The notes under the pieces were generated by a model that saw only the letters and a program-made list of their open reading frames with translations, was not told the origin of the DNA and searched no databases. Shown here in pieces: positions 1,353 through 43,119 of a stretch of DNA of 64,000 nt. Origin of the DNA: an uncultured Patescibacteria group bacterium. GTDB lineage: Bacteria; Patescibacteriota; Microgenomatia; UBA1400; PJMF01. Numbering within the stretch: the first letter of the stretch is position 1; each line of letters begins with the position of its first letter. Location of the stretch: contig CAJQIG010000001.1 of assembly GCA_905478415.1 (NCBI GenBank), positions 150,098 through 214,097 on the forward strand, written 5' to 3'. A program made the position numbers and the translations under genes.

Positions 1353-1636
1353 GAGTTGGTTTTCTAATGGCTTGCTTTTGGTTATGGCTAGTATAGCAGG
1401 AGATTTGGGATTGTAAAAAACAAAGAGAAGGTTAAAAAAATATCCCATAGTATTGATTTTAAAATGTATCTCTGGTATAATTACTCGATTACAAACTTTT
1501 GAAAATCAAAAAAAGTTTCGTGATCTATTCTTTAACAGTTTACCTATTTATAAACAGTAAATTCTCTTTCATAGAATGGTGTCTTATATTCAACATTGGG
1601 TTGAATATTTAACCACCATTCTTGGAGGATTATTTC

Positions 1637-3088
1637 ATGAAGAATGCACCATTATTTGTAGGGTTAGGACTGATAGTGTTGATCCTGGGGTGGATCTTTG
1701 CCCCTTCGGCCATTGTCCATTTCATCCTTTTTGATATATTGTGGCTCGGCTTGCCTTACCTTTTGCCAGTCTTGGTTGTAATATTGCTAGTTTTACTAGC
1801 AGGCATGAAGAGTGAGGGTTTAATCATAGCCGTCTTCGTTGCTGGAGTGATTGGACTTATTTGCTGGTGGATTTATTTGCCGGCTTTAAGTCAATATGAA
1901 TTGGTTAATTCAATCAAACCAGTTCCCATCGAAGATATCCCAGCAAGTTCGAATGTCAGATTTATGCCAATGCCAGTTGCTCAACAGTTGGCATCCAGTA
2001 AATACCAGGACCCTCGTCATCATATTGGTGATATGGATCCTATCGAACTTGAAAGCGGAGACATTGGCTGGGTTGGAAGTCGTATACCAACGGGAATAGT
2101 TAACTACTACTCGGGTAATGCCCAAGGTACGATAACTGTTGATCCTTTTGGTCGTGTGACTACCCAAGATCAAGTCTTTGCTTGCGGTGAAGGAATGGCT
2201 ATTACTGATAATATCCGATGGAAATTGTGGCGTGAACATTATGGCGCCGTCCTGGATGAATATTACTATATTACAATTGACGATGAAATTGTTTTGATGG
2301 CTCCTTATATCACTTGGCATCTTGAAGGGATTGTCTTTGTGCCCCAGTGGGGTGGCGTATTTGTTGTTGACGGCGATTGTCACATTGAAGATTTATCTCC
2401 TCGTGAGGCTTTGGCCGATAGCCGCCTGATTGGGCATCGAATTGTTCCGGAAAGTTATGCTAAACGTGTTGCAGATGCATGGCAATACCGCAATGGTATT
2501 GCGAATGCTTGGTTTTACCATGTTGATCAGACTGAAGTACCAACGATTGATGGTGAGGATAACCAAATGCCGTACCTGATTCCAACGGAATTGGGTGAGC
2601 AATGGTTTATCGCCATGGAACCGTATGGGCCTGCATTTAGCATCTTTAAAATGATGTTTGTTGATGCTCATGACGGAACAATCCGCTTGTACGAATATTC
2701 TGAAGATGCGGCGATCATTTCACCTAATAAGGCGCTTGGTTTTATCCAGGCAGCCAATCCCACATACAACTGGGATAAAATTCGCGTAATTGAACCGCGG
2801 CCGCTGATTGTTGATAACGTTCTCTATTGGATGATGAGCCAAACAAGCTCTGACTTTAGTGGTGTAGAACGAACAATTCTTGTTCGATCGTCCGATGAGA
2901 AAGTTTTAGTGGTTGAATCTTATGAAGAGCTAGTGGTATTTCTTAGTGGCAACACAGCAACCGCTAGTCAGCTAGATGAAGAATCAACTGCTGTTAACAG
3001 TGAGGTTCCCAGTGACCTTACAACTTTGACTACGCAAGAGCTCTATGATTTGATCATGGACGTTGCTCGTGAGTTGGAAAGTCGTTAA
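1637..3088 (+). CDS. hypothetical protein: N-terminal 3-TM anchor plus ~380 aa extracytoplasmic domain
   Basis: ORF track 1622..3088. Position 1622 is TTG. The ATG at 1637 is preceded by GGAGG (1624-1628) at 8 nt spacing. Hydrophobic N-terminus (LFVGLGLIVLILGWIF..., LPVLVVILLVLLAG..., IAVFVAGVIGLICWWIY). Remainder is hydrophilic with no recognisable motif. GC noticeably higher than the window average. Confidence 0.6.
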   Translation: MKNAPLFVGLGLIVLILGWIFAPSAIVHFILFDILWLGLPYLLPVLVVILLVLLAGMKSEGLIIAVFVAGVIGLICWWIYLPALSQYELVNSIKPVPIEDIPASSNVRFMPMPVAQQLASSKYQDPRHHIGDMDPIELESGDIGWVGSRIPTGIVNYYSGNAQGTITVDPFGRVTTQDQVFACGEGMAITDNIRWKLWREHYGAVLDEYYYITIDDEIVLMAPYITWHLEGIVFVPQWGGVFVVDGDCHIEDLSPREALADSRLIGHRIVPESYAKRVADAWQYRNGIANAWFYHVDQTEVPTIDGEDNQMPYLIPTELGEQWFIAMEPYGPAFSIFKMMFVDAHDGTIRLYEYSEDAAIISPNKALGFIQAANPTYNWDKIRVIEPRPLIVDNVLYWMMSQTSSDFSGVERTILVRSSDEKVLVVESYEELVVFLSGNTATASQLDEESTAVNSEVPSDLTTLTTQELYDLIMDVARELESR

Positions 3089-3114: not shown

Positions 3115-3149
3115 GAGGCTCCTTCATTTCGAAGGGGCCTCATTTTTTT
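3115..3149 (+). terminator. Rho-independent terminator after 1637..3088, also abutting the convergent GT2 stop
   Basis: GAGGCTCCTTC-ATTTC-GAAGGGGCCTC gives an 11-bp stem (one G.U) and 5-nt loop, followed by ATTTTTTT. Confidence 0.65.
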
Positions 3150-3924
3150 ACTTCATCACCCGATACGCCCACACAATCAAGGTAGCATGTATCTTATGCA
3201 CAAACCGAATAAAGGGAGATTTCACGTATTTCAGAACCAGTTCATGCTCTTCGGCAAACTGCTTTTCATAGAGGGCTCCCCCTTTAGACTGGCCATGAAT
3301 TCTAAAGAGTGAAAAATGTGAATCAGTTACATGCAATGGAAATTGCTCCATAGCTCGCATCCAGTAGTCAAAGTCCATACAGAAGTGGAGGTCTTCGTTA
3401 AACATACCGACTTTATTTAGCAGCTCACGACGCCAAAAGGTACTGGGTTGGATAATATAGTTGGCAATAGAAAGTCTGGTGCGGGTAGGATCTTTGCGAA
3501 GCCATTTTTTATACTCGGCTACAAAACTTTGAATTTTGTTGCCTTTTTCATCAATAATAAAGTAGTCACCGGTTAGCCACATAGCATCGGAGTGATTGCT
3601 GAAGTACTCTGCCACGGTGTTAAGTGTATTGGGAAGAAAAACATCGTCACTATTAATAAAACAAAGGATGTCGCCAGTGGCTTTTTTAAGACCTTGGTTA
3701 ATTGCATCGGTTTGGCCTTTATCTTTCTTTGAGACCCAAGTAAATTGTGTACCGTACGATTTGAGAATCTTGACGGTATCATCGGTCGATCCCCCATCCA
3801 TGACGATATACTCAAGGTTTGGGTAGTTTTGATTGAGCACACTCTCAATTGTTTCTGTAATGAAGTGACCTTGGTTATAGCTGGGGGTGATAACGGTTAT
3901 TTTAGGAAGTTGCTTTTGTTTCAT
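3148..3924 (-). CDS. glycosyltransferase family 2 (GT-A fold)
   Basis: N-terminus KITVITPSYNQGHFITETIESVLNQNYPNLEYIVMDGGSTDDT plus the DxD-region INSDDVF are the classic GT2 signature. Confidence 0.8.
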   Translation of the reverse strand: MKQKQLPKITVITPSYNQGHFITETIESVLNQNYPNLEYIVMDGGSTDDTVKILKSYGTQFTWVSKKDKGQTDAINQGLKKATGDILCFINSDDVFLPNTLNTVAEYFSNHSDAMWLTGDYFIIDEKGNKIQSFVAEYKKWLRKDPTRTRLSIANYIIQPSTFWRRELLNKVGMFNEDLHFCMDFDYWMRAMEQFPLHVTDSHFSLFRIHGQSKGGALYEKQFAEEHELVLKYVKSPFIRFVHKIHATLIVWAYRVMK

Positions 3925-4001: not shown

Positions 4002-5006
4002 TTAACTACCGGTGAGTCCATGGACAACATGCCAGATTAACTCAAACATATCTGACTTCTTGTTGAGGACCATGTCTGCACCATTCTCTTCAAAGAGCTC
4101 ACGCACAGTCGATTCTTCATCTGACCATAACCGAGTGATTCGGTCAAGATTTTCTGATGTGTAGGCAAAAATCAACAATGGTGGTGGTAGTAAGGCTGCA
4201 ATTTCAGCCACGCAGGTGTGGCCAGGAGCTTGTCCCTCACTATGTTGGTCAACAACATACACATGGGCCAATTTAACAATCCCTGCACGCCAAGCGGCAC
4301 AGCTGGGATAGGCACCAACGGTGATAATACCTTGTTGAGCCAAGTTAGCTACAATGAGTGATGCCCACATGGCGTTATCTTCAATAACAACCGCAAGCGA
4401 ACCCGTTGGGGCCTGAATATCAATATCACCCGCCTCAACGGTAGGTGCCATTGCTACAATACCAACTTGGTCTTCAACCATTCCAGCTGGCAAGATTAGG
4501 TCAGTTCCATACCCTGCTTCCCATTCTTGGAAGCCATCAAAGGTGGTACCAGACCAGACAGCCTGATTTTGGAGACTGACTGCGGCTTGGCCACTAAAAA
4601 TTGCAACGATGCTTCCTTTGAGCATCATAACCAAAAATTCATCCCCTGGAATGGGATCGGCTACTGTTATTGCAAACAGTGGAACAAGAATATAGTTCTC
4701 GTTACCATTGAGCGATGCAGTAAATGCATCTCGATTTGTCCAACGGTACAGTGGGTCAACTACATCCCAATCAGATCCAGAGCATGATTCCCAGACACCA
4801 GAAACAACGCGAAGACTGCCTGGAGGGCAATATCCGGTATTAATGGCTTCATCTTGGGTGGTTGCTCCCCAGAAAACTGGGCTTTCGGCTGTATCTTCAA
4901 TTTTTGCAGGAGTGGAACTTTGGACAGCTGTACCAGGTGTTCCACATGCGGTTAGGGCGAATACTATGGCCATTACTATAATCAGAGTTTTTTGTGCTTT
5001 GCTCAT
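4002..5006 (-). CDS. hypothetical lipoprotein
   Basis: ORF track 4002..5018. The second ATG gives MSKAQKTLIIVMAIVFALTACGT, a lipoprotein signal peptide with lipobox L-T-A-C. The mature part has no recognisable motif. GC-rich relative to the window. Confidence 0.6.
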   Translation of the reverse strand: MSKAQKTLIIVMAIVFALTACGTPGTAVQSSTPAKIEDTAESPVFWGATTQDEAINTGYCPPGSLRVVSGVWESCSGSDWDVVDPLYRWTNRDAFTASLNGNENYILVPLFAITVADPIPGDEFLVMMLKGSIVAIFSGQAAVSLQNQAVWSGTTFDGFQEWEAGYGTDLILPAGMVEDQVGIVAMAPTVEAGDIDIQAPTGSLAVVIEDNAMWASLIVANLAQQGIITVGAYPSCAAWRAGIVKLAHVYVVDQHSEGQAPGHTCVAEIAALLPPPLLIFAYTSENLDRITRLWSDEESTVRELFEENGADMVLNKKSDMFELIWHVVHGLTGS

Positions 5007-5130
5007 TTTTGCCTCCACGAGCTAGATAGAAAATAAAAATTGTTTGTTAAAAAACGATAGTTACTTCTCAAAGAGAAATAACTATATCCTATATTATATC
5101 ATAAGAGGAGTTTAATAGTGTGTAAACGTA

Positions 5131-5159
5131 AAAATGGCAGCCTCTTGGACTGCCATTTT
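5131..5159 (-). terminator. intrinsic terminator hairpin downstream of 5177..5860 (minus strand)
   Basis: AAAATGGCAG-CCTCTTGGA-CTGCCATTTT is a perfect 10-bp stem with a U-rich 3' arm on the minus strand. Confidence 0.5.
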
Positions 5160-5176
5160 CTTTCTACATTCTTTAC

Positions 5177-5860
5177 TTACTTGCGCAGAAATCCATACCC
5201 CGTATCATCGTTTCCTGGGAATGGGTTGGGATCGTTGCTTTGGGCTCGGATAATGCCTTCCTGTTTTAGCCACCACAAGGGGCGATACTGGATTTGAGTA
5301 ACTTGTGTGGGATGGTAGGTAGCCCGTGTAAAAGGCACCTCTACCACATGGGAGACTTTGGTGCCGTCCCCTGTCATACCGACTGGAGATTTACGCAGTG
5401 TATCACCACCGCCCAAAGAAAACACCTCTTTGGTGAATGCTTCGTTCATGGGCATAACTACTTCTTTTTCTCGGAAGAAAGCTAAGCCAATGACGCCAGC
5501 ATTATCTGTGTTGCCTGAAGTCCAGGCCGCAACAGAGTTGGAAGGATAGGTAACCTTAAATGGAGAAATGGTCCCATTATCAAGGCGATATCCTTCAATA
5601 ATTAGCTGACCATCTAAGATATAACCACGGTCATTAAGAAAATCTGCAGGGCGATTGCGGTGAACAGAACGGCCGTCTACAGACATGTAGACTTCCATTC
5701 TATCAAATGGTCCAGCAGTCGAAACACGAACCTTGATATGATCATTAACCTCTGCTTGAACAAACGGCATGTTATCGCCTTGGCGATAGAAAATTTCTGT
5801 TGGCCGATCATTACGGAGGATAATAATGTTTGCCAAACTTCCAGGAATCATGTTGTTCAT
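5177..5860 (-). CDS. hypothetical soluble protein, unknown function
   Basis: 227-aa ORF with no TM segments or recognisable motifs. GC-rich (~48-50%) compared with neighbours. Followed by a hairpin terminator. Confidence 0.55.
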   Translation of the reverse strand: MNNMIPGSLANIIILRNDRPTEIFYRQGDNMPFVQAEVNDHIKVRVSTAGPFDRMEVYMSVDGRSVHRNRPADFLNDRGYILDGQLIIEGYRLDNGTISPFKVTYPSNSVAAWTSGNTDNAGVIGLAFFREKEVVMPMNEAFTKEVFSLGGGDTLRKSPVGMTGDGTKVSHVVEVPFTRATYHPTQVTQIQYRPLWWLKQEGIIRAQSNDPNPFPGNDDTGYGFLRK

Positions 5861-6060
5861 AACCTAAAATCTCCTTTAAAAAAGAAATATCCAGCCAACC
5901 GGATGTTAACTGGTGAACCAAAATGACAAAATAAGCTTGATACACCAGTTAACGTGTAAAGAATGTTAAAGATCAGAAGTATTTTACCCCATCTACATCT
6001 TCTAGTCAAATGTTATAAGTCTGTTATGTTACTATATCCCTTCAAAACTATCAAAAGAGG

Positions 6061-6801
6061 TTGTATACTCAAGTAAGTATAGAAACGAGGTATATGTCAG
6101 ATCAAACTTTAAAAACACCAGAAGAGCTTAAAGCTGCTGCCGAGTTTCAATTAAAAGCCAACCTTTCTCAAATGTCTCTGGGAGAGATTCGCATGAAACT
6201 TATCCTTGAAGGAGATACATTGCTTGAGGGTACGGGGCTCAATGCTAACGATCTGATTGTGGCGTGTAATGATTTAATAGATGCTATAGCAACTAATACG
6301 ACAGGTTCAAATGATGTTCCCGCGTACATTTTAAATAAAACTGCTCGAGCACAGGTGGTTCCTAGTTTTTTGCGTGCTACCTTTAAAGATGCCATTGCGA
6401 CTGAGATTACAACTCAACATGAAGAAGAAACTAAAAGAAAACTTGCTGAAGTAACAGCTAAAATTGGTACAGTGAAACCAACAGCAGAGAACTTATCAAG
6501 GTTTCGACGGCTTATTACTGAAGGTGTTGCATTAGGAATTATTGATCAAGATACTGCACTAGCTAAAATAAATAAAGCTATTGAAGCTACACTAGCAGTA
6601 ATAGATGTAACAATTAAAGAGATGACTACCATAAACATGCATAAAGACAAGCAACGTTTCTCTCCAGATATTTTGCAACACTATATGTCTAAAAAGTTAG
6701 AGCAACAAGATGATCTACCACCACTCGATTTTTTCGGCGAAGCTCTCTCAGACTATGCTGAAAAGAGTTTGCATGTAAAAAGAAAGAAGCAAGGAAATTA
6801 G
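6061..6801 (+). CDS. hypothetical acidic alpha-helical protein
   Basis: ORF track. Alternative start at MSDQTLK (6094). No motifs recognised. The stop overlaps the convergent GT2 stop at 6798-6801. Confidence 0.5.
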   Translation: MYTQVSIETRYMSDQTLKTPEELKAAAEFQLKANLSQMSLGEIRMKLILEGDTLLEGTGLNANDLIVACNDLIDAIATNTTGSNDVPAYILNKTARAQVVPSFLRATFKDAIATEITTQHEEETKRKLAEVTAKIGTVKPTAENLSRFRRLITEGVALGIIDQDTALAKINKAIEATLAVIDVTIKEMTTINMHKDKQRFSPDILQHYMSKKLEQQDDLPPLDFFGEALSDYAEKSLHVKRKKQGN

Positions 6802-7529
6802 ATTTTCAATAAAATTCCAAACTTCAGGATCACCCACACAGCCCGAAAGGCATCTTTGAGAGCAATCTTTTTGCCTTCTTCGTAGGTGCGACCGTGGTAG
6901 GAAATGCCAACTTCGTACATACGAACTTTTTTATGGGCAATTTTTGCCGTTACCTCTGGCTCAATACCGAATGAATTTTCTGTAATCTCAATTGATTGAA
7001 TCACTTCTCGACGGAACATTTTATAGCCAGTTTCCATATCAGTCAGGTTAATGTTATTAAAAATATTTGAAAGTAAGGTTAAACTCATGTTAGCCAAGTA
7101 GTGCCAAAAGTAGACAACTCGGTGGGCATGAGCTCCCATAAAACGGGATCCATACACGACATCTGCTTTATCGTCTAAGAGTGGTTGTAGTACCAGTGGC
7201 AGATCGTTTGGGTCATACTCTAAGTCTGCATCTTGGATAACCACAAATTTGCCAGTGGCTTGTGCGATCCCATCCCGAAGTGCGGCACCTTTTCCACCAT
7301 TTTTATCTCTAAAGATGAGCGTGGCAATATACTTTTTTTCTAATTTTTTTAGAATCTTTCGAGTTGAGTCCTTAGATCCATCGTCAACAACAATAACTTC
7401 AATCTCACCAAGTTTGGCAGCATGAACAGCTTTAAGTACACGTTCAATTGTTTTTTCTTCGTTGTAAGCAGGAATAACTATACTCAGCAGTGGAGCCTTT
7501 TTACTTTTTGCCATTGGACTTCTTTCCAT
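6798..7529 (-). CDS. GT2 polyprenyl-phosphate sugar synthase (Dpm1/GtrB-like)
   Basis: LLSIVIPAYNEEKTIERVL...EVIVVDDGSKDST...VVIQDADLEYDPNDL... plus a short C-terminal hydrophobic tail. This is the DPM1/GtrB/ArnC subfamily signature. Possible later start at MAKSKK (7514). Confidence 0.8.
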   Translation of the reverse strand: MERSPMAKSKKAPLLSIVIPAYNEEKTIERVLKAVHAAKLGEIEVIVVDDGSKDSTRKILKKLEKKYIATLIFRDKNGGKGAALRDGIAQATGKFVVIQDADLEYDPNDLPLVLQPLLDDKADVVYGSRFMGAHAHRVVYFWHYLANMSLTLLSNIFNNINLTDMETGYKMFRREVIQSIEITENSFGIEPEVTAKIAHKKVRMYEVGISYHGRTYEEGKKIALKDAFRAVWVILKFGILLKI

Positions 7530-7845
7530 TCGTAATTGCTTCTGATCTAATAACTTCTTCTAATTTTTTTTCTAGTGACCTGACTTTAAAGTAGCTCATA
7601 AATACTACCACCGAGAGAATCATAAAGGCAATCACAATCAACAGGTCAAATACTCGAGCGAAGTTTAAAAGTCCCGTAATTCCGAGTAATAAGTTTGGGA
7701 AGAGGGCTACAACGGTGAAAGCCACCCAAATAGATGACCAAGCCCAAACCTCAACTTGGTTTAAGTTTCGTTTTTTACCATGAATAGTCACCACATACAT
7801 CATGAAGAGTGCAAACAAGGCTGAAATTATTTGAAATATTGTCAT
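7501..7845 (-). CDS. small 3-TM membrane protein (accessory to Dpm1-like GT2; GtrA-/DUF2304-like role suspected)
   Basis: ORF track 7501..7863. The ATG at 7845 gives an ATGA overlap with the upstream GT2 stop. Three hydrophobic helices and a basic C-tail. Sandwiched between two Dpm1-like GT2 genes. Confidence 0.55.
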   Translation of the reverse strand: MTIFQIISALFALFMMYVVTIHGKKRNLNQVEVWAWSSIWVAFTVVALFPNLLLGITGLLNFARVFDLLIVIAFMILSVVVFMSYFKVRSLEKKLEEVIRSEAITNGKKSNGKK

Positions 7846-8534
7846 AAGGTTATCCTCCACCATAAAATGTTATGTAAAAAATCGAGCGTGTTCAGTATGG
7901 TCATACCTTTATCGTGATCATGGTAGATGGTATCGATAGTAATAGTAGTAAAGGGGATTCTATACTTTGAAACCCGGCATGCAATCTCCATTTCGACTTG
8001 GTATCCTAGCGCATTCCATCTCAGCTTTTTATACGCTTTTTTATTTAAGGCTTTGTATCCAGATGGGATATCGGGAATAAAAGGACTTTGAAAAAGTACT
8101 TGGACAAGATGGGAAGCAAGTTGATTAAAAAAACGCTTAAACCCTGGCATGTCTCCGCTGAGCCTTCGTGTTCCAAAAACAATCTCTGCCTCTGATGATG
8201 CAAAGGCTTTGACAAAAGACTGTAATTCGGCTGGATTATGTTGATCGTCACTGTCCATCATAATGACAGTATTGGCACCTAGTTCATCAAATGCATAGTC
8301 ACATCCGGTTTTAAGTGCAGCCCCTTTCCCCATATTGACTCGATGACGCAGTACATGAGATATACTTTTTTTTGCTTCAGAGAAGGTAGCATCACTAGAG
8401 CCATCATCAATAAAAATAATGTTTGGTGTATATGCACTCACCTTTTGTAGCACCGAACCGACATATTTTTCCTCGTTAAGACCAGGCATAACGATCCAAA
8501 CATCTCTAGGTAATTTTTTAGTCTTGGTTTTCAT
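7842..8534 (-). CDS. GT2 polyprenyl-phosphate sugar synthase (Dpm1/GtrB-like)
   Basis: VWIVMPGLNEEKYVGSVL...IIFIDDGSSDAT...VIMMDSDDQHNPAEL is the DPM1-like GT2 signature. Confidence 0.8.
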   Translation of the reverse strand: MKTKTKKLPRDVWIVMPGLNEEKYVGSVLQKVSAYTPNIIFIDDGSSDATFSEAKKSISHVLRHRVNMGKGAALKTGCDYAFDELGANTVIMMDSDDQHNPAELQSFVKAFASSEAEIVFGTRRLSGDMPGFKRFFNQLASHLVQVLFQSPFIPDIPSGYKALNKKAYKKLRWNALGYQVEMEIACRVSKYRIPFTTITIDTIYHDHDKGMTILNTLDFLHNILWWRITL

Positions 8535-9459
8535 CCGAATGTTCTTTCCAGTACTGAGTAAAATACTGAACGGTTTCTGTAATACCTTCTTCTAAGCTCA
8601 CCTGTGCTCGCCAACCTAACTGCTTGTGAGCTTTGCCTGCATTTGCATAGAGCATTAATGGATCTCCTGGACGTTCTGGCAAGTGTTTGATTTGAGCCTT
8701 TTTTTGCATGGCTGATTCAATTGCAGCTGCAATTTCCAACACAGTAGATGGTTTTTCGGTGCTCAAATTAAAGTAGTGGTAGGCACCTGGATTTTGCAGA
8801 GCATAGTCAAGAGCTTTGAGGTGTGCATCGACAATGTCAGTCACATGAATATAATCTCGCTGGTGTTCTCCACTGCCATAGACGGTTACCTCTTGGTCGG
8901 TATAGATTTGTTTAATAAACCTTGGCATGGCATGTGATTCTGGCTCGTGGTGTTCCTTTGGACCATACAAATTAAAGTACCGAAGCGCCACTGCGGTAAA
9001 ACCATGAGCTTGTACATAACTAGAGATCAATCCTTCCATGGCAAGTTTTGTCATACCGTAGGGGTTAATAGGAATAGTTCGATCGTCCTCAGTAATAGGA
9101 ATAGTTTGAGGTTCCCCATACACAGCTGCTGATGATGAAAAAAGAAGTATTGTAATGTTATTTTCTCGCATCGCTTCTAGGACTGCAACAGTTCCAGAAA
9201 TATTAGTATCAACAAAAGTTTGAGGAAACTTGACTGATTCACCAGCTTCAATTAAGCCAGCTAAATGTAAGACGGCATCTGCATCCTTGATGACTTCTTT
9301 CATTCTCTGTGCATCTCGAATATCAGCTAAGATAGTTTCAACTTCAACATGCTTGGCTGGACGAATATCAACGTTTAAGACCGTATGACCAGCAGATTCG
9401 AGTGCTGGAATCATGTGACTACCCAAGAATCCCGAACCTCCTGTAACAATTATTTTCAT
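8518..9459 (-). CDS. NAD-dependent nucleotide-sugar epimerase/dehydratase (GalE-like extended SDR)
   Basis: ORF track 8518..9486 (TTG). ATG at 9459 gives MKIIVTGGSGFLGSHMI. YxxxK region: PYGMTKLAMEGL. AAGGAAAG lies 4 nt upstream of the ATG. Confidence 0.75.
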   Translation of the reverse strand: MKIIVTGGSGFLGSHMIPALESAGHTVLNVDIRPAKHVEVETILADIRDAQRMKEVIKDADAVLHLAGLIEAGESVKFPQTFVDTNISGTVAVLEAMRENNITILLFSSSAAVYGEPQTIPITEDDRTIPINPYGMTKLAMEGLISSYVQAHGFTAVALRYFNLYGPKEHHEPESHAMPRFIKQIYTDQEVTVYGSGEHQRDYIHVTDIVDAHLKALDYALQNPGAYHYFNLSTEKPSTVLEIAAAIESAMQKKAQIKHLPERPGDPLMLYANAGKAHKQLGWRAQVSLEEGITETVQYFTQYWKEHSDENQD

Positions 9460-9473
9460 ATCTTTCCTTTCGA

Positions 9474-10691
9474 TTATGCAACCCAATAGCCTTGTATAAA
9501 GAGAACTGTGTTTAATACTAACAAAATTCCGCTAAAAATAAACCAAGTGTATCTAAAGAGTCTATTTTTTTCTGTCCAGTCAGCTAGAACTATAAAAAGT
9601 GGAAAACAAACCAAGATGTATCTTGGCAAACTCGAGAAAGTACCAGTCAAGGTTGGAGCAATAAAGACTAAGAGAGAAAAAATAACGTAACTTAACCTGA
9701 CTTTTGTTGCTGAATATACAAGTAAACCCAATCCTACTGTACCAGCAATAAAATCTTGCAGATACGAATAATACTTGAAATCAAAAGGACGAGCAGTCAC
9801 CAAAATTTTTAAATAACGATATAAAACTTGAGGATACGTTACCACTACTTCCTCTCTAATACCTCCAAACTCCGCTTGAACATGAAAAAAATAGAGGGGA
9901 TCACCAAATTCAGTAGCCAGGTAGTACATATACGTTAAGAGACCTAATGATCCAAGTGCTACGGTTGCTAATGGAAGAGCGTGTTTAGAAATACGTTTTT
10001 GTGCCCATAGGACAAAATAATTTTTTTTCTTAAGTACTAAGTGTTGCATTTTATTCCAAGTATATCCTTCAAAAAGGATCTCAAAAAAAAGTGCTGGGAT
10101 TAAAAAGATACCGACAATTCTAGTAGCACTCGCTAAGGCTACAAAGAGCGCTGTCAGCATGTACTTCTTTTTTTGAGTTGCGATAAATGAAAGTATGACC
10201 ATCAAGAGAAAAAACGATTCTGTGTAAGCGGCACCGAAAAATAAGGAGGTGGGAAAAACTAGCAGGATTATGGTTGCTATGAAAGCTCTCTTCTTAGAGA
10301 AAGATTCTTTTACAAAATAGTACCAAGTAATAAGTAAGGCTGCAAAGGAAAGGTTGGAGAGTGCTAAGTTCGCCAATAAAATATTATCGATACTCTTATT
10401 GAGTAACGATGAAAAATAGGGATAAATAGGAAAGAAGGCTTGCATGTAACTTGCTGAACCATAGCCATCTCTAGTAATTGTAATGTAGTGGACACCATCA
10501 AAGTTTGCCCATGAATACAACCATTGTGGGAGTCCAAATGTATCAAGCAAACCAATAGAGTAAGGAAACGAAGGATCATAGGCCAAAAAAGTATTTGCAA
10601 AATACCCAACAAGAAAAAGTATGCTTCGCCACACCAAGAATATGCCCATAAGTGGGAAAATAAAATGAATCTTTTTACGTACTGCTACCAT
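9474..10691 (-). CDS. polytopic membrane glycosyltransferase, PIG-V/Mannosyl_trans2-like (GT-C fold)
   Basis: About 10 TM helices. The first loop carries W-ANFDGVHYITITRDGYGSASYMQAFFPIYPYF, resembling the W-D-x-E-H-[FY]-L-x-I-A-x-x-G-Y...AFFP motif of PIG-V-type mannosyltransferases (motif recalled from memory). Confidence 0.5.
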   Translation of the reverse strand: MVAVRKKIHFIFPLMGIFLVWRSILFLVGYFANTFLAYDPSFPYSIGLLDTFGLPQWLYSWANFDGVHYITITRDGYGSASYMQAFFPIYPYFSSLLNKSIDNILLANLALSNLSFAALLITWYYFVKESFSKKRAFIATIILLVFPTSLFFGAAYTESFFLLMVILSFIATQKKKYMLTALFVALASATRIVGIFLIPALFFEILFEGYTWNKMQHLVLKKKNYFVLWAQKRISKHALPLATVALGSLGLLTYMYYLATEFGDPLYFFHVQAEFGGIREEVVVTYPQVLYRYLKILVTARPFDFKYYSYLQDFIAGTVGLGLLVYSATKVRLSYVIFSLLVFIAPTLTGTFSSLPRYILVCFPLFIVLADWTEKNRLFRYTWFIFSGILLVLNTVLFIQGYWVA

Positions 10692-11739
10692 TTTTAAGAA
10701 TACTTTTATACACTGCTACCGTTTCATTGGCCACTTTTTCCCAGCTAAATGTTTGTGACCATTTATATGCTTCTCGGAGCCAAGTGATCCGCTTTGTTTT
10801 TGACCATGATAGTACTTGGTTTACAGCTTGAGCCATTTTTTCTGCTTGTGGCTCTGTAAAGATGACCTGCTCACCTCCGACTTCAATCAGAGAGGAGTTA
10901 TGACTACACACAACTGGAGTTCTACACTGCATAGCTTCTAACACAGGTAATCCAAAACCTTCATAGAGGGAAGGTTGTACATATGCTTGGGCACCACTAT
11001 AGATAGCAGCGAGTTCATCGATTGATTCAGTCAAGATTGATGGCAAAAATATAACCCGATCTTCGACATTGCTGAGTGCTAACTGTGTCTCAATCCATTG
11101 CCATTCCGGTATATCCTGAGGAGTAAAGTTCCGACCTAAGCAAACAAGTTTAACTTCAGGGTCCTCAATAAACTTCATCATTTTTATGAGTTGAGGAATA
11201 TTTTTATTATAGTTAATATCTCCGACGTAGAGCAGATATTTAGCTGGTAGTGCATTTTTCTTAGCTACTGTGGTAATCATTTCATCATTTTGAGCTTGCA
11301 GGTTTGGATTAGCAGCCAAGTACACAACATGAACCTTTTCTGTATGCACACCTAAATGTTTTACTATGTCTGCTTTTGAAGCCTGTGAATCCGTAATAAT
11401 GGCTGCTACATTTTTGAGAGCCATTTTTTGTTTGTGAAATCTGAGTTTTCCTTTTATACCTGGTTTGTATTGCTTCGGAAAAACAAGGGGAATCACATCA
11501 TGAATGGCAACGACTTTATTTTTTGATCCAGTCAAAGGTAAGGTGTTAAAAAAGAGGTCAAAAAATGGGTAGTGCACAACATCAGCTTTAATTTTTTCAT
11601 TTTTACCTAAAGTGCTTGTTTTATACACCTCAACATCATCTCTTTTTTCTAGTTCAGAGAGTAACATTCGAGCATAGGTACCAATACCTCTGGCCGAGTG
11701 ACCACCACTTAAAACGCTGGTTTCAAAGAGTAATTTCAT
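10675..11739 (-). CDS. glycosyltransferase family 4 (GT-B fold)
   Basis: C-terminal EGFGLPVLEAMQCRTPVVCS is the canonical GT4 E-x7-E nucleotide-sugar-binding motif. Confidence 0.85.
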   Translation of the reverse strand: MKLLFETSVLSGGHSARGIGTYARMLLSELEKRDDVEVYKTSTLGKNEKIKADVVHYPFFDLFFNTLPLTGSKNKVVAIHDVIPLVFPKQYKPGIKGKLRFHKQKMALKNVAAIITDSQASKADIVKHLGVHTEKVHVVYLAANPNLQAQNDEMITTVAKKNALPAKYLLYVGDINYNKNIPQLIKMMKFIEDPEVKLVCLGRNFTPQDIPEWQWIETQLALSNVEDRVIFLPSILTESIDELAAIYSGAQAYVQPSLYEGFGLPVLEAMQCRTPVVCSHNSSLIEVGGEQVIFTEPQAEKMAQAVNQVLSWSKTKRITWLREAYKWSQTFSWEKVANETVAVYKSILKNGSST

Positions 11740-12548
11740 GAACTGTCTCTTTTCTTATGTTCTCTCAACTCCCAGAGGAGTAGGTATGCTACCTGATGGT
11801 GCAATCCACTCATAAGCGCAAAAACAAATCCTGGAATTCCATCAACATACCCTCTGTGTCTGATAAATAATTGTACAAAAGTGTAGATGGGTTTATAGAT
11901 GACGTAGTTGAGTGTGTTTAAAATAGAAATTTGCAGGTTATCTTTTTCGAGCTGTTGCGCTTTAAAGTTTGTATAGGTGCTGAATTTTCGTAAATAATCT
12001 GAGAAAGTTGGATTTGCATAGTGTATCAAGTGCCCTTTGGCCCAACCAATCTCTCCTTTCACTTCCATTTGTTCATGGACATCTTTTTGTGGAAGTTTTG
12101 CATAACCATGTATGTACAGTCTAATAACTGGATCTGGATATTGACCTCCCTTTTTAAAGTAGTGACCTAAAAAGAAATTCTTTCGTTTTAGCCACCAAGC
12201 TACTGGAGAACCAGAATAAGTACTGCCAACTGTGAACCCAGACCGGACTACTTCTGTATGTAGTGATGTAATCCATTTCTTTTGTTCTTTGTCTGGCCAC
12301 TCGTCAGCATCTAATTGGAGTACCAGTTCTCCTTTGGCAGCATCCATAGCCATCTGTTTATTTATATGGAAATTTGCTTTATTAGTAGTGGAAATAATTT
12401 TGGCGCCATTTTTTTTCGCAATTTCAACTGTTTTATCTGTCGATGAACCATCTACAACAACAATTTCGTCAGCAATATCTGCAATAGATTGCAGACACTT
12501 TGCAATATTCTTTTCTTCGTTATAGGTAGCCAAGACGACTGATAACAT
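11736..12548 (-). CDS. glycosyltransferase family 2
   Basis: MLSVVLATYNEEKNIAKCLQSI...IVVVDGSSTDKT...LQLDADE is the GT2 signature. Confidence 0.8.
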   Translation of the reverse strand: MLSVVLATYNEEKNIAKCLQSIADIADEIVVVDGSSTDKTVEIAKKNGAKIISTTNKANFHINKQMAMDAAKGELVLQLDADEWPDKEQKKWITSLHTEVVRSGFTVGSTYSGSPVAWWLKRKNFFLGHYFKKGGQYPDPVIRLYIHGYAKLPQKDVHEQMEVKGEIGWAKGHLIHYANPTFSDYLRKFSTYTNFKAQQLEKDNLQISILNTLNYVIYKPIYTFVQLFIRHRGYVDGIPGFVFALMSGLHHQVAYLLLWELREHKKRDSS

Positions 12549-12611
12549 AGGGACATTGTATCAAAAGAAGTAGATTTGTTTTTTAGCACTTTTTAGGATA
12601 GATTGAACCAT

Positions 12612-14495
12612 ATGAAGAAATTACTCATTTTCGCTACTTTTGTTTATTTTCTACTCGCACCGATTACCTACCATCCCGACAATAAACTAGTGCTGAACTG
12701 GGCAAGTATCAACAACGGTACTAACTGGAATATCTGGAATGCAACCGCCGATGAACTCAAAGACGTAGGGCAATTCAACTATCCTCCAGTGCATTTTTAT
12801 TTAGACAAACTGCAGTACTTTATTACGAAACCTATTGGTGGCTCTGGATTTTACGAGTGGCTTTCGACCCCTAACTCTACCGACCAAAATCAGGACAGCC
12901 TTCCTCGATTTACTTTTGCGATCAAGTTCCCTCTCATGCTTTTTTCACTTTTAGCAGGGTACCTTTTATACTTACTTGCTAAGCAATCGAAAGCTACTGA
13001 GAAGCAAGCAATTTTTGTAAGTGCCTTATGGCTTCTCAACCCGATCACTTTGTATAGTATCCCTGTCATGGGACAAAATGACGTTATGGCTATCGTCTTC
13101 TTTTTGGCTGCTTGGCTCTTTTTAAATAAGAAAAAATTATTTTACTCAGCGCTCTTATTTGGTTTGGGAGCATCAATCAAAATGTTTCCATTGCTGTGGC
13201 TCCCCTTTTTACTTCTTGTCGAGAAACGTCTTTCCTTAAAAGAAAAACTAGTAACTTTTGGAAGTAGTGTGCTGGTCTACATCGCGACATTGCTCCCATT
13301 TATTTCTAACCCTGCATTTAGAGCTGCTGTGTTTGAACGAGGCATAGATCGACTTTTTATTGCTAGAATTGACTTGGGTTTCGAAGATAAAATTTTGATT
13401 GTACCAATCCTACTCATGCTTTTAGTTGCGGGAGCAGTTCATAAATATAAAACTATAGAGACAAAAAAAGTAATGATTCATCAAGCCAGTATTTTACTGC
13501 TGTTGAACATGATCTTTCTTTTCTTCAATCACTTTCATCCTCAATGGTTTACTTGGCTACTTCCTTTCTGGGCACTTTGGTTTCTTAACCAGAAAAAAGA
13601 AAATCTTGTTTGGGTCCTCCTTACAAACGGGATTGTTTTAGGAGCATGGGCACTTATCATTTTGCTCTTTAATGACACTGCACTTACGGCGGGACTCTTG
13701 ACTCCGTTAAATGCATTCTTAATGACGCTTCCTTCAATGAGAGAACTACTACTGAGTCAGGGTGTTGATGTTAAAACGTTCAATAATTATGGGCATACTT
13801 TGTTAGCGGGTATGGGAATACTTTACTTTTCATATTGGTTCAAGAGTCAAGAGGTTTCCCTCCGTCATTCTATAGGTGAGTTTAGGTACTTTTGGAAAAA
13901 AATACCCAAGTTAGTTCTCTATATATCAATTTTAGCAATTTCTTTTACTAGCATTCTTATGTTGACGTTTATTGCCAATGCAATTCCTACGCCTATTGCC
14001 AGTAACAATCCAGTAGTCGTTGATTATGAGCCTTTTGTTTCCACCATAGAACAAACATTTATTGGACAAACCAACGGTTTATACCGAATTGATTTATATT
14101 TGTCAGACATTGACCTACAAAATACAGACACATATAGAGTACAAATGATGTCGGAGGATGGAACGCTGGTTCTAGACCAAGTCTTTTCTGGTATCAATAT
14201 TGGATATAAATCTGAAATCCGTTTTGATCTAAGATCTCAAGGAAATTCAATGAACCAACCCTACACCATTAAGCTGATTCCCCTTGAAATAACAGAAGAA
14301 GACCCATTGGAGATAGCATTAACAGAATCTGACAGACTTGAATCATTTGCCTTTCGAAGTTTCTATAAAAAGCCCCGTGGGAACAAGTATCTGGGGTATG
14401 TGCTGACAGAAACACTCCAACAGGATTTCAACATACTCAAGCAGGTTCCCATTGTCATTATCGCTCTTCCTATTTTACTCTGGTTGGCACTCTAA
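12612..14495 (+). CDS. large polytopic membrane protein (~13 TM), putative GT-C-like glycosyltransferase
   Basis: ORF track 12603 (TTG)..14495. ATG at 12612 (MKKLLIF). Multiple TM helices and a C-terminal ~170 aa hydrophilic domain. No definitive catalytic motif identified. Confidence 0.5.
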   Translation: MKKLLIFATFVYFLLAPITYHPDNKLVLNWASINNGTNWNIWNATADELKDVGQFNYPPVHFYLDKLQYFITKPIGGSGFYEWLSTPNSTDQNQDSLPRFTFAIKFPLMLFSLLAGYLLYLLAKQSKATEKQAIFVSALWLLNPITLYSIPVMGQNDVMAIVFFLAAWLFLNKKKLFYSALLFGLGASIKMFPLLWLPFLLLVEKRLSLKEKLVTFGSSVLVYIATLLPFISNPAFRAAVFERGIDRLFIARIDLGFEDKILIVPILLMLLVAGAVHKYKTIETKKVMIHQASILLLLNMIFLFFNHFHPQWFTWLLPFWALWFLNQKKENLVWVLLTNGIVLGAWALIILLFNDTALTAGLLTPLNAFLMTLPSMRELLLSQGVDVKTFNNYGHTLLAGMGILYFSYWFKSQEVSLRHSIGEFRYFWKKIPKLVLYISILAISFTSILMLTFIANAIPTPIASNNPVVVDYEPFVSTIEQTFIGQTNGLYRIDLYLSDIDLQNTDTYRVQMMSEDGTLVLDQVFSGINIGYKSEIRFDLRSQGNSMNQPYTIKLIPLEITEEDPLEIALTESDRLESFAFRSFYKKPRGNKYLGYVLTETLQQDFNILKQVPIVIIALPILLWLAL

Positions 14496-16224: not shown

Positions 16225-16237
16225 GTCAGTGATTCTT

Positions 16238-17137
16238 ATGAAAATCAAAAGAATTCTTTTATTGGTTGAAAACTATCTACTACCTATTTTTTTATTATTT
16301 GCTATTACAATAATTTGTCTTGAATTTTTGACTCATACCAACTTCATTTTGGAAACTCTACATATAGATTACGTTGATACATTTATCATAGCTAGTTTTT
16401 TATACTTAGTGAGTAAGATTAGGAACGGGACGGCTTTTTTCAGAAAGCATTGGCAAACTGCAATCTTCTTGCTACCTCTCTTTCTAACAGCGATATTCAT
16501 GATCGTTTTTATGAGGCATCACTCTTTCTACCTTTTTATTGAAAAAGAAGACTCGCTGATTGAATGGGGTCAGTTTCTTTTTATTGCTCTGAGTAGTATT
16601 TTTAGTTTCTTACTGTATCGCAAATGGTATCAAAAACATACAATTCTTGGTATTTTGTTTTTCCTTGCTGCCATTGGTTTCTTTGTGATTGCTGGAGAAG
16701 AAATTTCTTGGGGACAACGAATTTTTAACATTCAGACTCCCGAAGAGTTTGCAAAGATGAATTCTCAAGGTGAAATAACCCTGCACAACTATGGCCCAGT
16801 GTTTGGCTATGTGTACCGAGCCTATGCCCTACTAGGATTCATTGGTGCTGCAGCCTGGACAGTAAAGAGAGCCATCACCAAACAGTTAGCAACTGAGTAT
16901 AAGAAAATTACCGAAGTTTTAATTCCGAGTTGGTACTTTTTTTTCTACTTCTTTACGACTTTTGCGTATAATCTCTATTTCCATATTTTATTCCCAAGAA
17001 CTGGGGGAAATACTGGCGATGATCTCTTTGAAGAACCGATCGAACTACTCCTTTTCTTTGGCGTAGCTCTCTTCCTTTTTACTCTACTACTTTCTGTCTA
17101 CTCAAAATCTAAGCAGCGAAAGCAACGAGCAAAATGA
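16238..17137 (+). CDS. polytopic membrane protein (~8 TM), unknown function
   Basis: ORF track 16229 (GTG)..17137. ATG at 16238. Stop overlaps the next start (ATGA at 17134-17137). Conserved-looking EEISWGQRIF loop. Confidence 0.5.
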   Translation: MKIKRILLLVENYLLPIFLLFAITIICLEFLTHTNFILETLHIDYVDTFIIASFLYLVSKIRNGTAFFRKHWQTAIFLLPLFLTAIFMIVFMRHHSFYLFIEKEDSLIEWGQFLFIALSSIFSFLLYRKWYQKHTILGILFFLAAIGFFVIAGEEISWGQRIFNIQTPEEFAKMNSQGEITLHNYGPVFGYVYRAYALLGFIGAAAWTVKRAITKQLATEYKKITEVLIPSWYFFFYFFTTFAYNLYFHILFPRTGGNTGDDLFEEPIELLLFFGVALFLFTLLLSVYSKSKQRKQRAK

Positions 17138-37306: not shown

Positions 37307-38878
37307 TTACCTTAGGCTTTTCAGCTCTACCATTAGTTTATCACGACCAACCAGTACTAGGGCGAGAATGTAGGAAGAACCAGTGATAACTCCGCCTAGT
37401 AAGAGATGACCAAATCCCAATCCCCAATAGTCTCTTCCTAAGAAGCCCACAAAAGCCATAACTATAGCTGCCACTGCCTGACGCCAAACTGACTCTATAA
37501 AGTTGATCGGTACTATCTTTCGAACATAATACACCGGTAAAGCCGAAGTGAAGGAAATTGCTAATGCAGCCAGAGCTACTCCATTATACCCATAGAAAAC
37601 TATAAGAACTGGAGTCAAAACCCAAGTCAAAATTGTCCAGAAAATCATCAATTTTAAAGTTGTGTTTATCTGTCCAACAGCGTTGAGCGTATTGGTGAGT
37701 GGCGTTGAAACTGCACTCCAACCTATACTGAGAGTAAAGAAAATAAGACTGAATGCCGCAGGTTGCCACTTTTGATACTCTGGGATAATTGTCAAAGCTG
37801 GAATTATAAAGGTCACCATACCGATTAAAATTGGAAAAATGGCAGTGGTAATAAAGAAAAGAGATTTTTCAATTGCTTTTCTCAAGGCAACTTTATGGCC
37901 TTGTAAACGAGAGAATGCCGGGAACGTAACCGACATAACATTTTGAACAGTTAAGCTATAAGGATACATGGACCATTGCTTAGCCCAAGTGATATAACCA
38001 AATTCCTTTGATGGCAAAAATGCTGCCAAGAAAAAGTAAAAGAGCTGGTCTTTAATTCGTGCCAAGAAATCATTAATCTGGAATTTAGCACCGTAACCAA
38101 ACAATCCTTTTAGGGCTGGCACGTGAATCATAATACCAAATGACCAAGGTTGTAGCACTGACATACTGATAGCCCCAACCACTGAACGAAAGATAATAGC
38201 GTAGGCATATGAAATCAATCCATAGCCACGAATAACCATAAAAATAAGTGTGCCTTGAAACACAATTTGTTCTAGGATCTGTGGCAAGACAAGTTTTGAA
38301 AAATCTAACTTTCTTTCCAAAATAACAGATGGGATTGTCTTTAAGGTTGCAAGCGGAAATGAGAGACCCATTGCCAGGAGGATCCAAATACCGGCATTAC
38401 CAGCCTTCATTTGAAATGCTGCAGTAGTTGCTACAAGAATAGTTATACCAAAAATGAGCCAACTCAAAAGTTGTTGTACAGTAAATGCAGTCCGGTACTC
38501 ACGTTTGGTCGGAGTAGTCTTCTTTTGAATCAAAGCTGCTGCTAACCCAATATCTGAAAAGAAAGTTAAGAGCCCAACAACTTGAATCACTAGTCCATAA
38601 ATACCATAATCTTCAGGGGAAAGATAAAAACCTAGTAAAGAGGTTGCAACTAATCCAATGACCTGCAAAAGAACTGTTCTTAAAAAGTATGAAGCGGCCC
38701 CATTGACAGAACGTTTTTTAATATCTTGGATAGCAACTTCCTGTGCATGAGTAATTTTTTCCTCTTGTTCCGGAAACGAGCCAACTGATTTAAGACTCGG
38801 CTTTTGTGGAAATATCGGAGTACCAAGCTTTGAAACAAGATCTCTATATTTAGCTTTTTGAAAAAGGCGAAACAACAT
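37307..38878 (-). CDS. wzx: Wzx-type lipid-linked oligosaccharide flippase (MOP/PST family) with ~55 aa hydrophilic N-terminal extension
   Basis: About 12-14 TM helices. N-terminal region ASYFLRTVLLQVIGLVATSLLGFYLSPEDYGIYGLVIQVVGLLTFFSDIGLAAALIQKK matches the conserved Wzx/PST N-terminal core. Start codon shares one base with the upstream stop. Confidence 0.75.
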   Translation of the reverse strand: MLFRLFQKAKYRDLVSKLGTPIFPQKPSLKSVGSFPEQEEKITHAQEVAIQDIKKRSVNGAASYFLRTVLLQVIGLVATSLLGFYLSPEDYGIYGLVIQVVGLLTFFSDIGLAAALIQKKTTPTKREYRTAFTVQQLLSWLIFGITILVATTAAFQMKAGNAGIWILLAMGLSFPLATLKTIPSVILERKLDFSKLVLPQILEQIVFQGTLIFMVIRGYGLISYAYAIIFRSVVGAISMSVLQPWSFGIMIHVPALKGLFGYGAKFQINDFLARIKDQLFYFFLAAFLPSKEFGYITWAKQWSMYPYSLTVQNVMSVTFPAFSRLQGHKVALRKAIEKSLFFITTAIFPILIGMVTFIIPALTIIPEYQKWQPAAFSLIFFTLSIGWSAVSTPLTNTLNAVGQINTTLKLMIFWTILTWVLTPVLIVFYGYNGVALAALAISFTSALPVYYVRKIVPINFIESVWRQAVAAIVMAFVGFLGRDYWGLGFGHLLLGGVITGSSYILALVLVGRDKLMVELKSLR

Positions 38879-40620: not shown

Positions 40621-40713
40621 TCATTCCATTTTATCAGGCAACAGCAGAGAAAGATAATCTTGTTTCTATTTTTTTAAAATAAAGATGGTATACAATGATG
40701 TACACACTACTTT

Positions 40714-41838: not shown

Positions 41839-41842
41839 GAGT

Positions 41843-42058: not shown

Positions 42059-42071
42059 AAGGATATCCACC

Positions 42072-43106: not shown

Positions 43107-43119
43107 AGAGAAGTTGCGT

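Follow-up and report, generated by a model that had tools for sequence, protein, structure and literature searches.

The pairs GacI/GacJ of Streptococcus pyogenes, EpaI/EpaJ of Enterococcus faecalis and WpsA/WpsB of Lactococcus each consist of an N-acetylglucosamine (GlcNAc)-phosphate-undecaprenol synthase and a partner protein of the DUF2304 family. GacJ co-purifies with GacI, is inactive alone and lowers GacI's apparent Km for undecaprenyl phosphate from 18.7 to 1.1 μM, and the mycobacterial homologue Rv3632 helps the synthase PpgS (bioRxiv 10.1101/180810). Lactococcal WpsB increases the output of WpsA, a WpsB-WpsA fusion is active, and an AlphaFold model places the C-terminal helix of WpsB (residues 93-115) on residues 58-87 of WpsA (PMC10821137). 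The flippase proposed for systems of these types is a Wzx-type protein, GacK or WpsG (bioRxiv 10.1101/180810; PMC10821137). Here we describe a locus of this kind in a stretch of 64,000 nucleotides (hereafter the window) on contig CAJQIG010000001.1 of an uncultured Patescibacteria group bacterium. Its core consists of two genes for glycosyltransferases of family 2 (GT2), GT2-A and GT2-B, and a gene for a small DUF2304 protein between them. The products, with lengths in amino acids (aa) and with reference to predicted transmembrane (TM) segments, are as follows:

7842-8534, minus strand: GT2-A, 230 aa, predicted TM-less polyprenyl-phosphate glycosyltransferase, PpgS/GacI-like
7501-7845, minus strand: DUF2304 small protein, 114 aa, predicted activating or anchoring subunit of GT2-A
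6798-7514 (238 aa) or 6798-7529 (243 aa), minus strand: GT2-B, second TM-less protein resembling polyprenyl-phosphate glycosyltransferases, Dpm1/AglJ-like

The initial annotation of this DNA had described two GT2 reading frames that bracket a 114-aa three-helix membrane protein with an ATGA overlap, an arrangement that was present as described, on the minus strand. It had also recognized the group as a donor-supply module, correctly so, and the module is of the GacI/GacJ, PpgS/Rv3632 and WpsA/WpsB kind. We consider it probable that GT2-A and DUF2304 are the two subunits of one polyprenyl-phosphate glycosyltransferase of the GacI/GacJ type, that GT2-B is a second, independent synthase, and that the module supplies cell-envelope glycan synthesis.

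Comparison with Described Systems

The locus resembles those of the GacI/GacJ type in that a TM-less GT2 protein of ~230 aa is followed at once by a three-TM DUF2304 protein of ~113 aa, and in that rhamnose synthesis genes, a Wzx-type protein, GT-C enzymes and an LCP ligase occur in its surroundings. As in WpsA, C-terminal amphipathic helices are combined with a fold like that of dolichylphosphate mannose synthase (DPMS). It differs from GacI/GacJ in its host, a member of the Patescibacteria (Candidate Phyla Radiation, CPR), and in having an epimerase gene ahead of the GT2 gene. It also differs in the gene 3′ of DUF2304, which encodes a second GT2 of polyprenyl-phosphate type and not a Wzx or WpsC protein. 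The likeness to GacI/GacJ was drawn from published descriptions, and that to PpgS was drawn from an NCBIfam profile.

PpgS (Rv3631)/Rv3632 of Mycobacterium tuberculosis and Cgp_0394/Cgp_0393 of Corynebacterium glutamicum form a polyprenyl-phosphate-N-acetylgalactosamine (GalNAc) synthase module in arabinogalactan modification. In addition to the synthase, the PpgS pathway includes the DUF2304 helper, a UDP-hexose/N-acetylhexosamine (HexNAc) 4-epimerase (Rv3634c; Cgp_0391) and a GT-C transferase (Rv3779), and its flippase is not yet assigned in the literature. All four of these roles have counterparts in the operon described here, and the C. glutamicum pathway likewise has an extra GT2 (Cgp_0396). 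PpgS was the top NCBIfam match of GT2-A over nearly its full length; the score, however, was 108 bits against a cut-off of 370, phylum and envelope differ, and GalNAc is not indicated here.

The DPMS of Pyrococcus furiosus is a type III enzyme with a fused GtrA-like TM domain, whereas the GT2 proteins of this locus have no fused TM domain, and the GtrA-like domain shows no sequence relationship to DUF2304. Alignments covered the catalytic domain and both interface helices of DPMS; the DxD-x-Q/E motif and Arg117 are kept, but the contacts made by Lys178 (mannose) and Arg131 (phosphate) are not. A parallel to the module is found in human DPM1, a TM-less catalytic subunit that is helped by the small membrane subunits DPM2 and DPM3. 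The module also shares the logic of GtrA/GtrB/GtrC and ArnC/ArnE-F/ArnT, in which a GT2 attaches a sugar to polyprenyl phosphate for use by a GT-C enzyme outside the membrane. Unlike the GT2 proteins here, GtrB and ArnC have C-terminal TM helices of their own, and the small protein is neither GtrA-like nor SMR-like.

GT2-A Is the Conserved Partner of DUF2304

DUF2304 relatives of this type were surveyed with one genome per species, which yielded 47 loci, nearly all from Patescibacteria, of which 46 were evaluable upstream. A GT2-A homologue lay immediately upstream of DUF2304 in 43 of these 46, mostly with the same ATGA overlap, and in two further loci (L010 and L015) a gene of ~0.7 kb was inserted between the two. 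Because the genes are directly adjacent in 43 of 46 loci, their pairing is not due to chance, and GT2-A is the conserved, obligate partner of DUF2304. Conservation extended upstream, with genes for a family 4 glycosyltransferase (GT4), a GT-C-like protein of 405 aa and the epimerase found in most of the 47 loci. The epimerase gene stood immediately upstream of GT2-A in most of them, and a homologue of the 405-aa protein was present upstream of GT2-A in ~33 loci, its L051 orthologue giving a weak Mannosyl_trans2 match. L010 and L015 are both Pacebacteria loci; the insertion in L010 held an open reading frame (ORF) of 158 aa (5371-5847) without a PHROGs match, and the corresponding gap in L015 spanned 4967-5646.

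The slot 3′ of DUF2304 was more diverse, being occupied across the 47 loci by a GT2-B orthologue in 10 (53-81% identity), a different GT2 in ~26, other genes in 9 and contig ends in 2. The different GT2 has 257-291 aa; all five of those checked matched PF00535, and the GT2-A and GT2-B profiles matched this family N-terminally only. An orthologue of this usual slot GT2 remains in the window at 3148-3924 (258 aa, 54% identical), and because it persists there, GT2-B and a few unannotated genes look like an insertion.

GT2-B belongs to a very conserved family (60-80% identity) of more than 8000 relatives, all of ~235-245 aa. DUF2304 was found within 4 kb of metagenomic GT2-B relatives (52-63% identity) in none of 62 evaluable loci, and at one metagenomic relative a PMT_2 GT-C gene stood immediately upstream. 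In other bacteria, the small ORFs that neighbor GT2-B relatives gave no Pfam matches, and no consistent small multi-TM partner was seen among them. Two of three GT2-B orthologues sampled in CPR (64% identity) again followed GT2-A and DUF2304. The third, in L050, began 31 nt after a GT2-A-like gene (223 aa) with no DUF2304 between (4298-5702 for the two genes), which suggests a tie between the two synthases that is independent of the small protein. The order GT2-A, DUF2304, GT2-B was present in at least 12 genomes. GT2-B is a lineage-specific recruit beside the pair in a Pacebacteria subclade, from a family that normally stands alone.

The genes at 4002-6801, between GT2-B and the 258-aa GT2, look like a lineage-specific insertion. 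One of them (6061-6801, plus strand) is convergent with GT2-B and overlaps its stop by 4 nt; it gave no Pfam or PHROGs match, and nor did those at 5177-5860 (minus strand) and 4002-5018 (minus strand, ~3 TM).

Many relatives without GT2-B at DUF2304 carried, 2-3 kb downstream, a GT2 of 313-321 aa that was 36-41% identical to GT2-B (L017, 8730-9695; L018, 8061-9002; L020, 8044-8994; L033, 8122-9069; L036, 9712-10662). This protein has the length of membrane-anchored synthases of the GtrB/CsbB type, and two synthases per locus may be a general pattern. Records of metagenome-assembled genomes (MAGs) that carry the cassette (L004-L008, L011, L014, L017 and others) were often titled "uncultured Pseudomonadales bacterium", with single records under Methylococcaceae, Limisphaerales and Methanosarcinales; these public taxonomic labels are probably wrong.

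The Small Protein Belongs to the DUF2304 Family

The small protein matched PF10066 (DUF2304) with an E value of 2e-15 and 57.4 bits against a cut-off of 25.5, its residues 4-106 aligning to positions 2-104 of the 106 in the profile, and PF10066 was present in 104 of 104 homologues found. It is a clear member of DUF2304, the family of GacJ, Rv3632, EpaJ and WpsB. Hydropathy analysis revealed three TM-like hydrophobic segments (3-21, ~36-57 and 65-83) followed by a charged amphipathic helix (84-105), and both length and topology agree with published descriptions of GacJ and WpsB. The start methionine (ATG in ...CTT ATG A...) is shared by 22 of 22 aligned homologues, and for this reason the length of 114 aa is favored over the 120 aa of the mechanically called ORF, which starts at 7863.

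Three families had been put forward by the initial annotation for a profile check of this protein, and of these DUF2304 was borne out whereas GtrA and the ArnE/F SMR-like family were not. Neither GtrA (PF04138) nor SMR/EamA appeared among the Pfam matches even at E ≤ 10, and the small protein as a GtrA- or SMR-like protein was rejected on that ground. The accompanying analogy with the GtrA and ArnE/F flippases is not supported either: the characterized DUF2304 members GacJ, Rv3632 and WpsB bind and stimulate a synthase, and the role attached to the family is synthase activation or anchoring and not flipping. A profile search of the PDB with the small protein gave no solved homologue, the sole match being a chance one (E 0.2), and a tblastn search with DUF2304 against plasmids gave no match.

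Family, Fold and Active-site Residues of GT2-A and GT2-B

Both GT2 proteins matched PF00535 (E 2.9e-22 for GT2-A and 7.1e-39 for GT2-B), and they are 27% identical to each other. The DPM1-type signature ascribed to both by the initial annotation was found as quoted in GT2-B (LSIVIPAYNEE, VVDDGSKDS and QDADLEYDP), and the DxD motif is present in both, but GT2-A departs from it in the first motif, WIVMPGLNEE, where VMPGLNEE stands in place of IPAYNEE; its further motifs are IDDGSSDAT and MDSDDQHNP (D94/D96). The DxD-x-Q/E motif (D94-S-D96-D-Q98-H99 in GT2-A and D95-A-D97-L-E99-Y100 in GT2-B) aligns in both proteins to 89-DADLQH-94 of DPMS.

The top NCBIfam match of GT2-A was PpgS (NF058614) at 108.3 bits, covering positions 1-218 of 226 (75.1 bits for GT2-B), and that of GT2-B was AglJ (TIGR04182) at 119.8 bits (91.3 bits for GT2-A). 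Matches that spanned most of the protein were to AglJ, Dol-P-hexose transferase and PpgS, with the addition of ArnC for GT2-B and one EpsD for GT2-A, whereas other NCBIfam GT2 models (PgaC, WcaA, NodC and similar) covered only the N-terminal nucleotide-binding half. Because the NCBIfam scores all fall far under the equivalog cut-offs, no specific name can be assigned to either GT2, and GT2-A appears from its sequence to be PpgS-like and not a PpgS equivalog. Automated Joint Genome Institute (JGI) names of GT2-A homologues include PpgS and UDP-GlcNAc:dolichyl-P GlcNAc transferase. The top PDB sequence match for both proteins was DPMS (5mlz), with 49 bits over residues 13-227 of GT2-A and 79 bits over residues 15-222 of GT2-B (E 2.6e-21). 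Scores with ArnC and GtrB were weaker, at 22-23 bits for GT2-A and 44-50 bits for GT2-B.

AlphaFold2 (AF2) models with a mean predicted local distance difference test (pLDDT) score of 92.3 for GT2-A and 83.5 for GT2-B both showed a GT-A core, a long helix after β5 at the position of interface helix (IFH) 1 of DPMS, and a C-terminal helix at the position of IFH2; the helices span 131-148 and 213-229 in GT2-A and 136-153 and 219-235 in GT2-B. The top 18 Foldseek PDB matches of both models were ArnC, DPMS and GtrB, with TM-scores of 0.70-0.78, and GpgS and chondroitin polymerase came next with slightly lower values. Taken from profile scores, PDB sequence scores and fold ranking, the class assignment of the initial annotation is supported: NCBIfam spans, the DPMS match and the structural ranking indicate that both proteins are polyprenyl-phosphate glycosyltransferases of the Dpm1/GtrB/ArnC type and not soluble processive synthases.

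The initial annotation had further noted a hydrophobic C-terminal tail in both proteins. A C-terminal helix does exist, but it is an amphipathic interface helix and not one of TM grade, the maximal 19-residue Kyte-Doolittle mean being 0.89 in GT2-A and 1.43 in GT2-B against a TM cut-off of 1.6, with no TM segment in either protein. HMMER alignments to DPMS extended through IFH2 in both, and the tail is a 17-residue amphipathic helix aligned with IFH2 of the P. furiosus enzyme. The tails as TM anchors were therefore rejected in favor of interface helices, as no segment reaches the threshold. Both proteins stop ~75-80 residues short of the ends of GtrB and ArnC, and C-terminal TM helices of the GtrB/ArnC type were not found. 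IFH2 of DPMS binds the first isoprene units, and P. furiosus DPMS deprived of its TM domain is still membrane-targeted and active (PMC5526996); a TM-less enzyme of the DPMS type can therefore work alone.

Among the eight GT2 proteins of the window, the GT2-A and GT2-B family profiles matched each other through the acceptor half, whereas the other six were matched only over the first ~110-130 positions. GT2-A and GT2-B are thus the only two of their type that the window encodes. Residues of DPMS were mapped onto both through the PDB sequence alignments, with roles taken from PMC5526996 and GT2-B in 238-aa numbering; the lipid-phosphate residues Arg117, Arg131 and Ser135 are defined for mannose synthases only.

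DPMS Asp89: GT2-A D94, GT2-B D95
DPMS Asp91: GT2-A D96, GT2-B D97
DPMS Gln93: GT2-A Q98, GT2-B E99
DPMS His94: GT2-A H99, GT2-B Y100
DPMS Arg117: GT2-A R123, GT2-B R124
DPMS Arg131: GT2-A N137, GT2-B H138
DPMS Ser135: GT2-A S141, GT2-B N142
DPMS Phe177: GT2-A Y178, GT2-B F182
DPMS Lys178: GT2-A Q179, GT2-B G183

Operon Structure and the Wider Glycan Locus

GT2-A, DUF2304 and GT2-B are the final three of seven operon genes, which run from 12548 to 6798 in the order GT2 (270 aa), GT4, GT-C-like protein (405 aa), GalE-like epimerase, GT2-A, DUF2304 and GT2-B. The four genes ahead of the module are listed below.

11736-12548, minus strand: GT2 of 270 aa, operon gene 1 (PF00535, E 1.5e-21)
10675-11739, minus strand: GT4 glycosyltransferase, operon gene 2 (PF00534, E 1.3e-25), kept in the cassette of relatives
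9474-10691, minus strand: polytopic membrane protein of 405 aa, GT-C-like, ~10 TM (PMT_2 weak, E 9e-4, below cut-off)
8518-9459, minus strand: GalE-like nicotinamide adenine dinucleotide-dependent sugar-nucleotide 4-epimerase (PF01370, E 7e-62; TIGR01179 galE, 226 bits, cut-off 262)

All junctions overlap but one, a 14-nt gap between the 405-aa gene and the epimerase gene. The end of the epimerase gene overlaps the start of GT2-A by 17 nt, the GT2-A stop and the DUF2304 start share an ATGA (4-nt overlap), and the GT2-B start overlaps the DUF2304 stop by 14 nt if placed at 7514, which is the start in the database cluster representative, or by 29 nt if placed at 7529. Because nearly all junctions overlap, the seven genes are read as one translationally coupled operon. 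A scan of 5800-12800 for promoter and terminator consensus sites was uninformative, the sites being no more frequent than in shuffled sequence. The 270-aa GT2 is not of the polyprenyl-phosphate type, and the GT2-A and GT2-B family profiles match only its N-terminal nucleotide-binding half. Identical proteins were found on marine-metagenome scaffolds of 230-584 kb, and the nearest relatives, with identities of 79% (small protein) and 66-81% (GT2 proteins), come from Candidatus Pacebacteria MAGs and those of other Patescibacteria.

Further glycan-related features of the window are as follows:

12603-32708, 38878-40620, 1622-3088 and 62799-63998: polytopic/GT-C-like proteins (Pfam and hydropathy)
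37307-38878: Wzx-like Polysacc_synt_3 protein (Pfam)
40714-41838: LCP (LytR-CpsA-Psr) ligase
42072-44587: rmlB, rmlC and rmlD

The GT-C enzymes that the initial annotation had placed nearby are indeed there, as ~13 GT-C-like polytopic membrane proteins of 490-645 aa with 8-21 hydrophobic segments each, encoded almost back to back. Some gave Pfam matches of the GT-C type (GT87, PMT_2, PTPS_related and DUF6056), mostly weak, and several gave none. Such a density is unusual for a genome that probably measures less than 1.2 Mb. Five further GT2/GT4 genes are present in the window. The region at 37307-44587 resembles a Gram-positive rhamnose cell-wall polysaccharide locus, here in Patescibacteria. 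In gene content the window corresponds to the loci for rhamnose-rich cell-wall polysaccharides in streptococci, enterococci and lactococci, the loci that served to define modules of the GacI/GacJ type. A small membrane protein like GtrA was not found in the window. A 302-aa protein with ~6 hydrophobic segments (16229-17137) lies amid the GT-C-like genes, and its position beside them is conserved in the source scaffold; the protein had no Pfam match even at E ≤ 10 and is possibly an unrecognized transporter or flippase.

Proposed Mechanism and Alternatives

The following minimal scheme is proposed for the module. The epimerase (8518-9459) would supply GT2-A with a 4-epimerized UDP-sugar, most likely a hexose or HexNAc. 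GT2-A would act as a peripheral GT-A enzyme, held at the cytoplasmic face of the membrane by its two amphipathic interface helices, and DUF2304 would bind to it, probably by the charged C-terminal helix, so as to position the active site over the lipid. Such binding is expected to raise the affinity for polyprenyl phosphate, onto which GT2-A would move the sugar at the inner leaflet. Another protein would then flip the polyprenyl-monophosphate sugar, candidates being the Wzx-like protein at 37307-38878 and an uncharacterized membrane protein. Finally, GT-C enzymes, with the co-operonic 405-aa protein as the first candidate, would use the lipid-linked sugar on a cell-envelope glycan. GT2-B, independently evolved, would probably make a different lipid-linked monosaccharide; that two synthases imply two different donors is plausible but unproven.

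Several observations weigh against this scheme. The kinship with GacI, GacJ, PpgS and Rv3632 comes from profiles and descriptions and not from sequence-to-sequence comparison, and both GT2 proteins score below the equivalog cut-offs (108 against 370 bits for PpgS; 120 against 325 bits for AglJ). Fold alone discriminates weakly, because GpgS, a non-lipid enzyme, reaches TM-scores (0.70-0.76) near those of the polyprenyl-phosphate enzymes. As regards GT2-B, DPMS residues Arg131, Ser135 and Lys178 are not kept, the slot after DUF2304 is filled in most other Pacebacteria by a GT2 that is not of polyprenyl-phosphate type, and in lactococci the slot after WpsB is occupied by the elongating transferase WpsC (PMC10821137).

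The last points bear on the main alternative for GT2-B, namely a WpsC-like role as a cytoplasmic transferase adding a second sugar to the product of GT2-A and DUF2304, the locus then making one lipid-linked oligosaccharide and not two donors. The order GT2, DUF2304, glycosyltransferase is that of lactococcal wpsA-wpsB-wpsC, in which wpsC is strain-variable and its product elongates GlcNAc-P-C55 (PMC10821137). The slot also varies in Pacebacteria, with GT2-B orthologues at 10 loci and a different GT2 at ~26, and GT2-B lacks the phosphate-binding Ser135 and Arg131 of DPMS. A functional link between the two GT2 proteins is also suggested by L050, where GT2-B comes straight after a GT2-A-like gene. 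Yet GT2-B aligns at full length, both interface helices included, with DPMS, AglJ, Dol-P-hexose transferase, PpgS and ArnC, whereas other GT2 types align over the N-terminal half only, and its top 18 structural matches are all polyprenyl-phosphate enzymes. Moreover, its very conserved family usually has no GT2-A/DUF2304 neighbor (0 of 62 for DUF2304), which makes it ill-suited to need the GT2-A product as a substrate, and the window retains, at 3148-3924, the orthologue of the GT2 that usually fills the slot. We therefore regard WpsC-like elongation by GT2-B as unlikely.

A variant compatible with the preferred two-synthase scheme, to which we give only a modest chance, is that a single DUF2304 subunit is shared by GT2-A and GT2-B as anchor or activator. 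The DUF2304 gene shares 4 nt with one neighbor and 14 or 29 nt with the other, at least 12 genomes have the same order of the three genes, and both GT2 proteins are TM-less with the same fold and a common N-x-GKGAAL motif, which aligns to the reported contact site of WpsA at residues 58-87 (PMC10821137) and lies in a putative contact region. Set against this are the GT2-B relatives elsewhere, which lack a nearby DUF2304 (0 of 62) much as TM-less P. furiosus DPMS functions without one (PMC5526996), and the L050 locus, where GT2-B stands beside a GT2-A-like gene with no DUF2304. The stronger form, in which DUF2304 docks both GT2 proteins into one complex and possibly helps to pass their products across the membrane, seems quite doubtful; if it were true, a single compact source of donors would serve over a dozen GT-C enzymes in a reduced CPR genome.

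That the small protein is itself the flippase of the module, carrying the polyprenyl-phosphate sugar to the outer leaflet in the manner of GtrA or ArnE/F, is in our judgment very improbable. The window offers no GtrA-like small membrane protein for the task, the flippase of the PpgS pathway likewise awaits assignment in the literature, and for P. furiosus DPMS a proposal exists that its GtrA-like TM domain flips the enzyme's product, so that TM modules attached to a synthase might moonlight in this way. The small protein, however, has three TM helices only and resembles neither GtrA nor SMR/EamA nor any protein of solved structure, even at E ≤ 10, and all experiments on the family have reported synthase stimulation or complex formation (bioRxiv 10.1101/180810; PMC10821137). 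In addition, related systems give flipping to the Wzx-type proteins GacK and WpsG, and a Polysacc_synt_3 protein is present here at 37307-38878.

Significance

The system is one already characterized, of which the locus is a further case in an uncultured CPR lineage; it is largely ordinary and points to no new mechanism. What is mildly unusual is only that another synthase of this type is translationally coupled 3′ of the DUF2304 gene. The comparison nevertheless corrects the tempting view that the small membrane protein is a flippase, and it extends to Patescibacteria a split synthase that had been defined experimentally in Firmicutes and Actinobacteria, here in a widely conserved cassette beside a dense set of GT-C genes. 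As the only two candidate sources of lipid-monophosphate sugar donors in the locus, GT2-A and GT2-B provide a starting point for establishing what the GT-C paralogues of these uncultured, host-dependent bacteria glycosylate.

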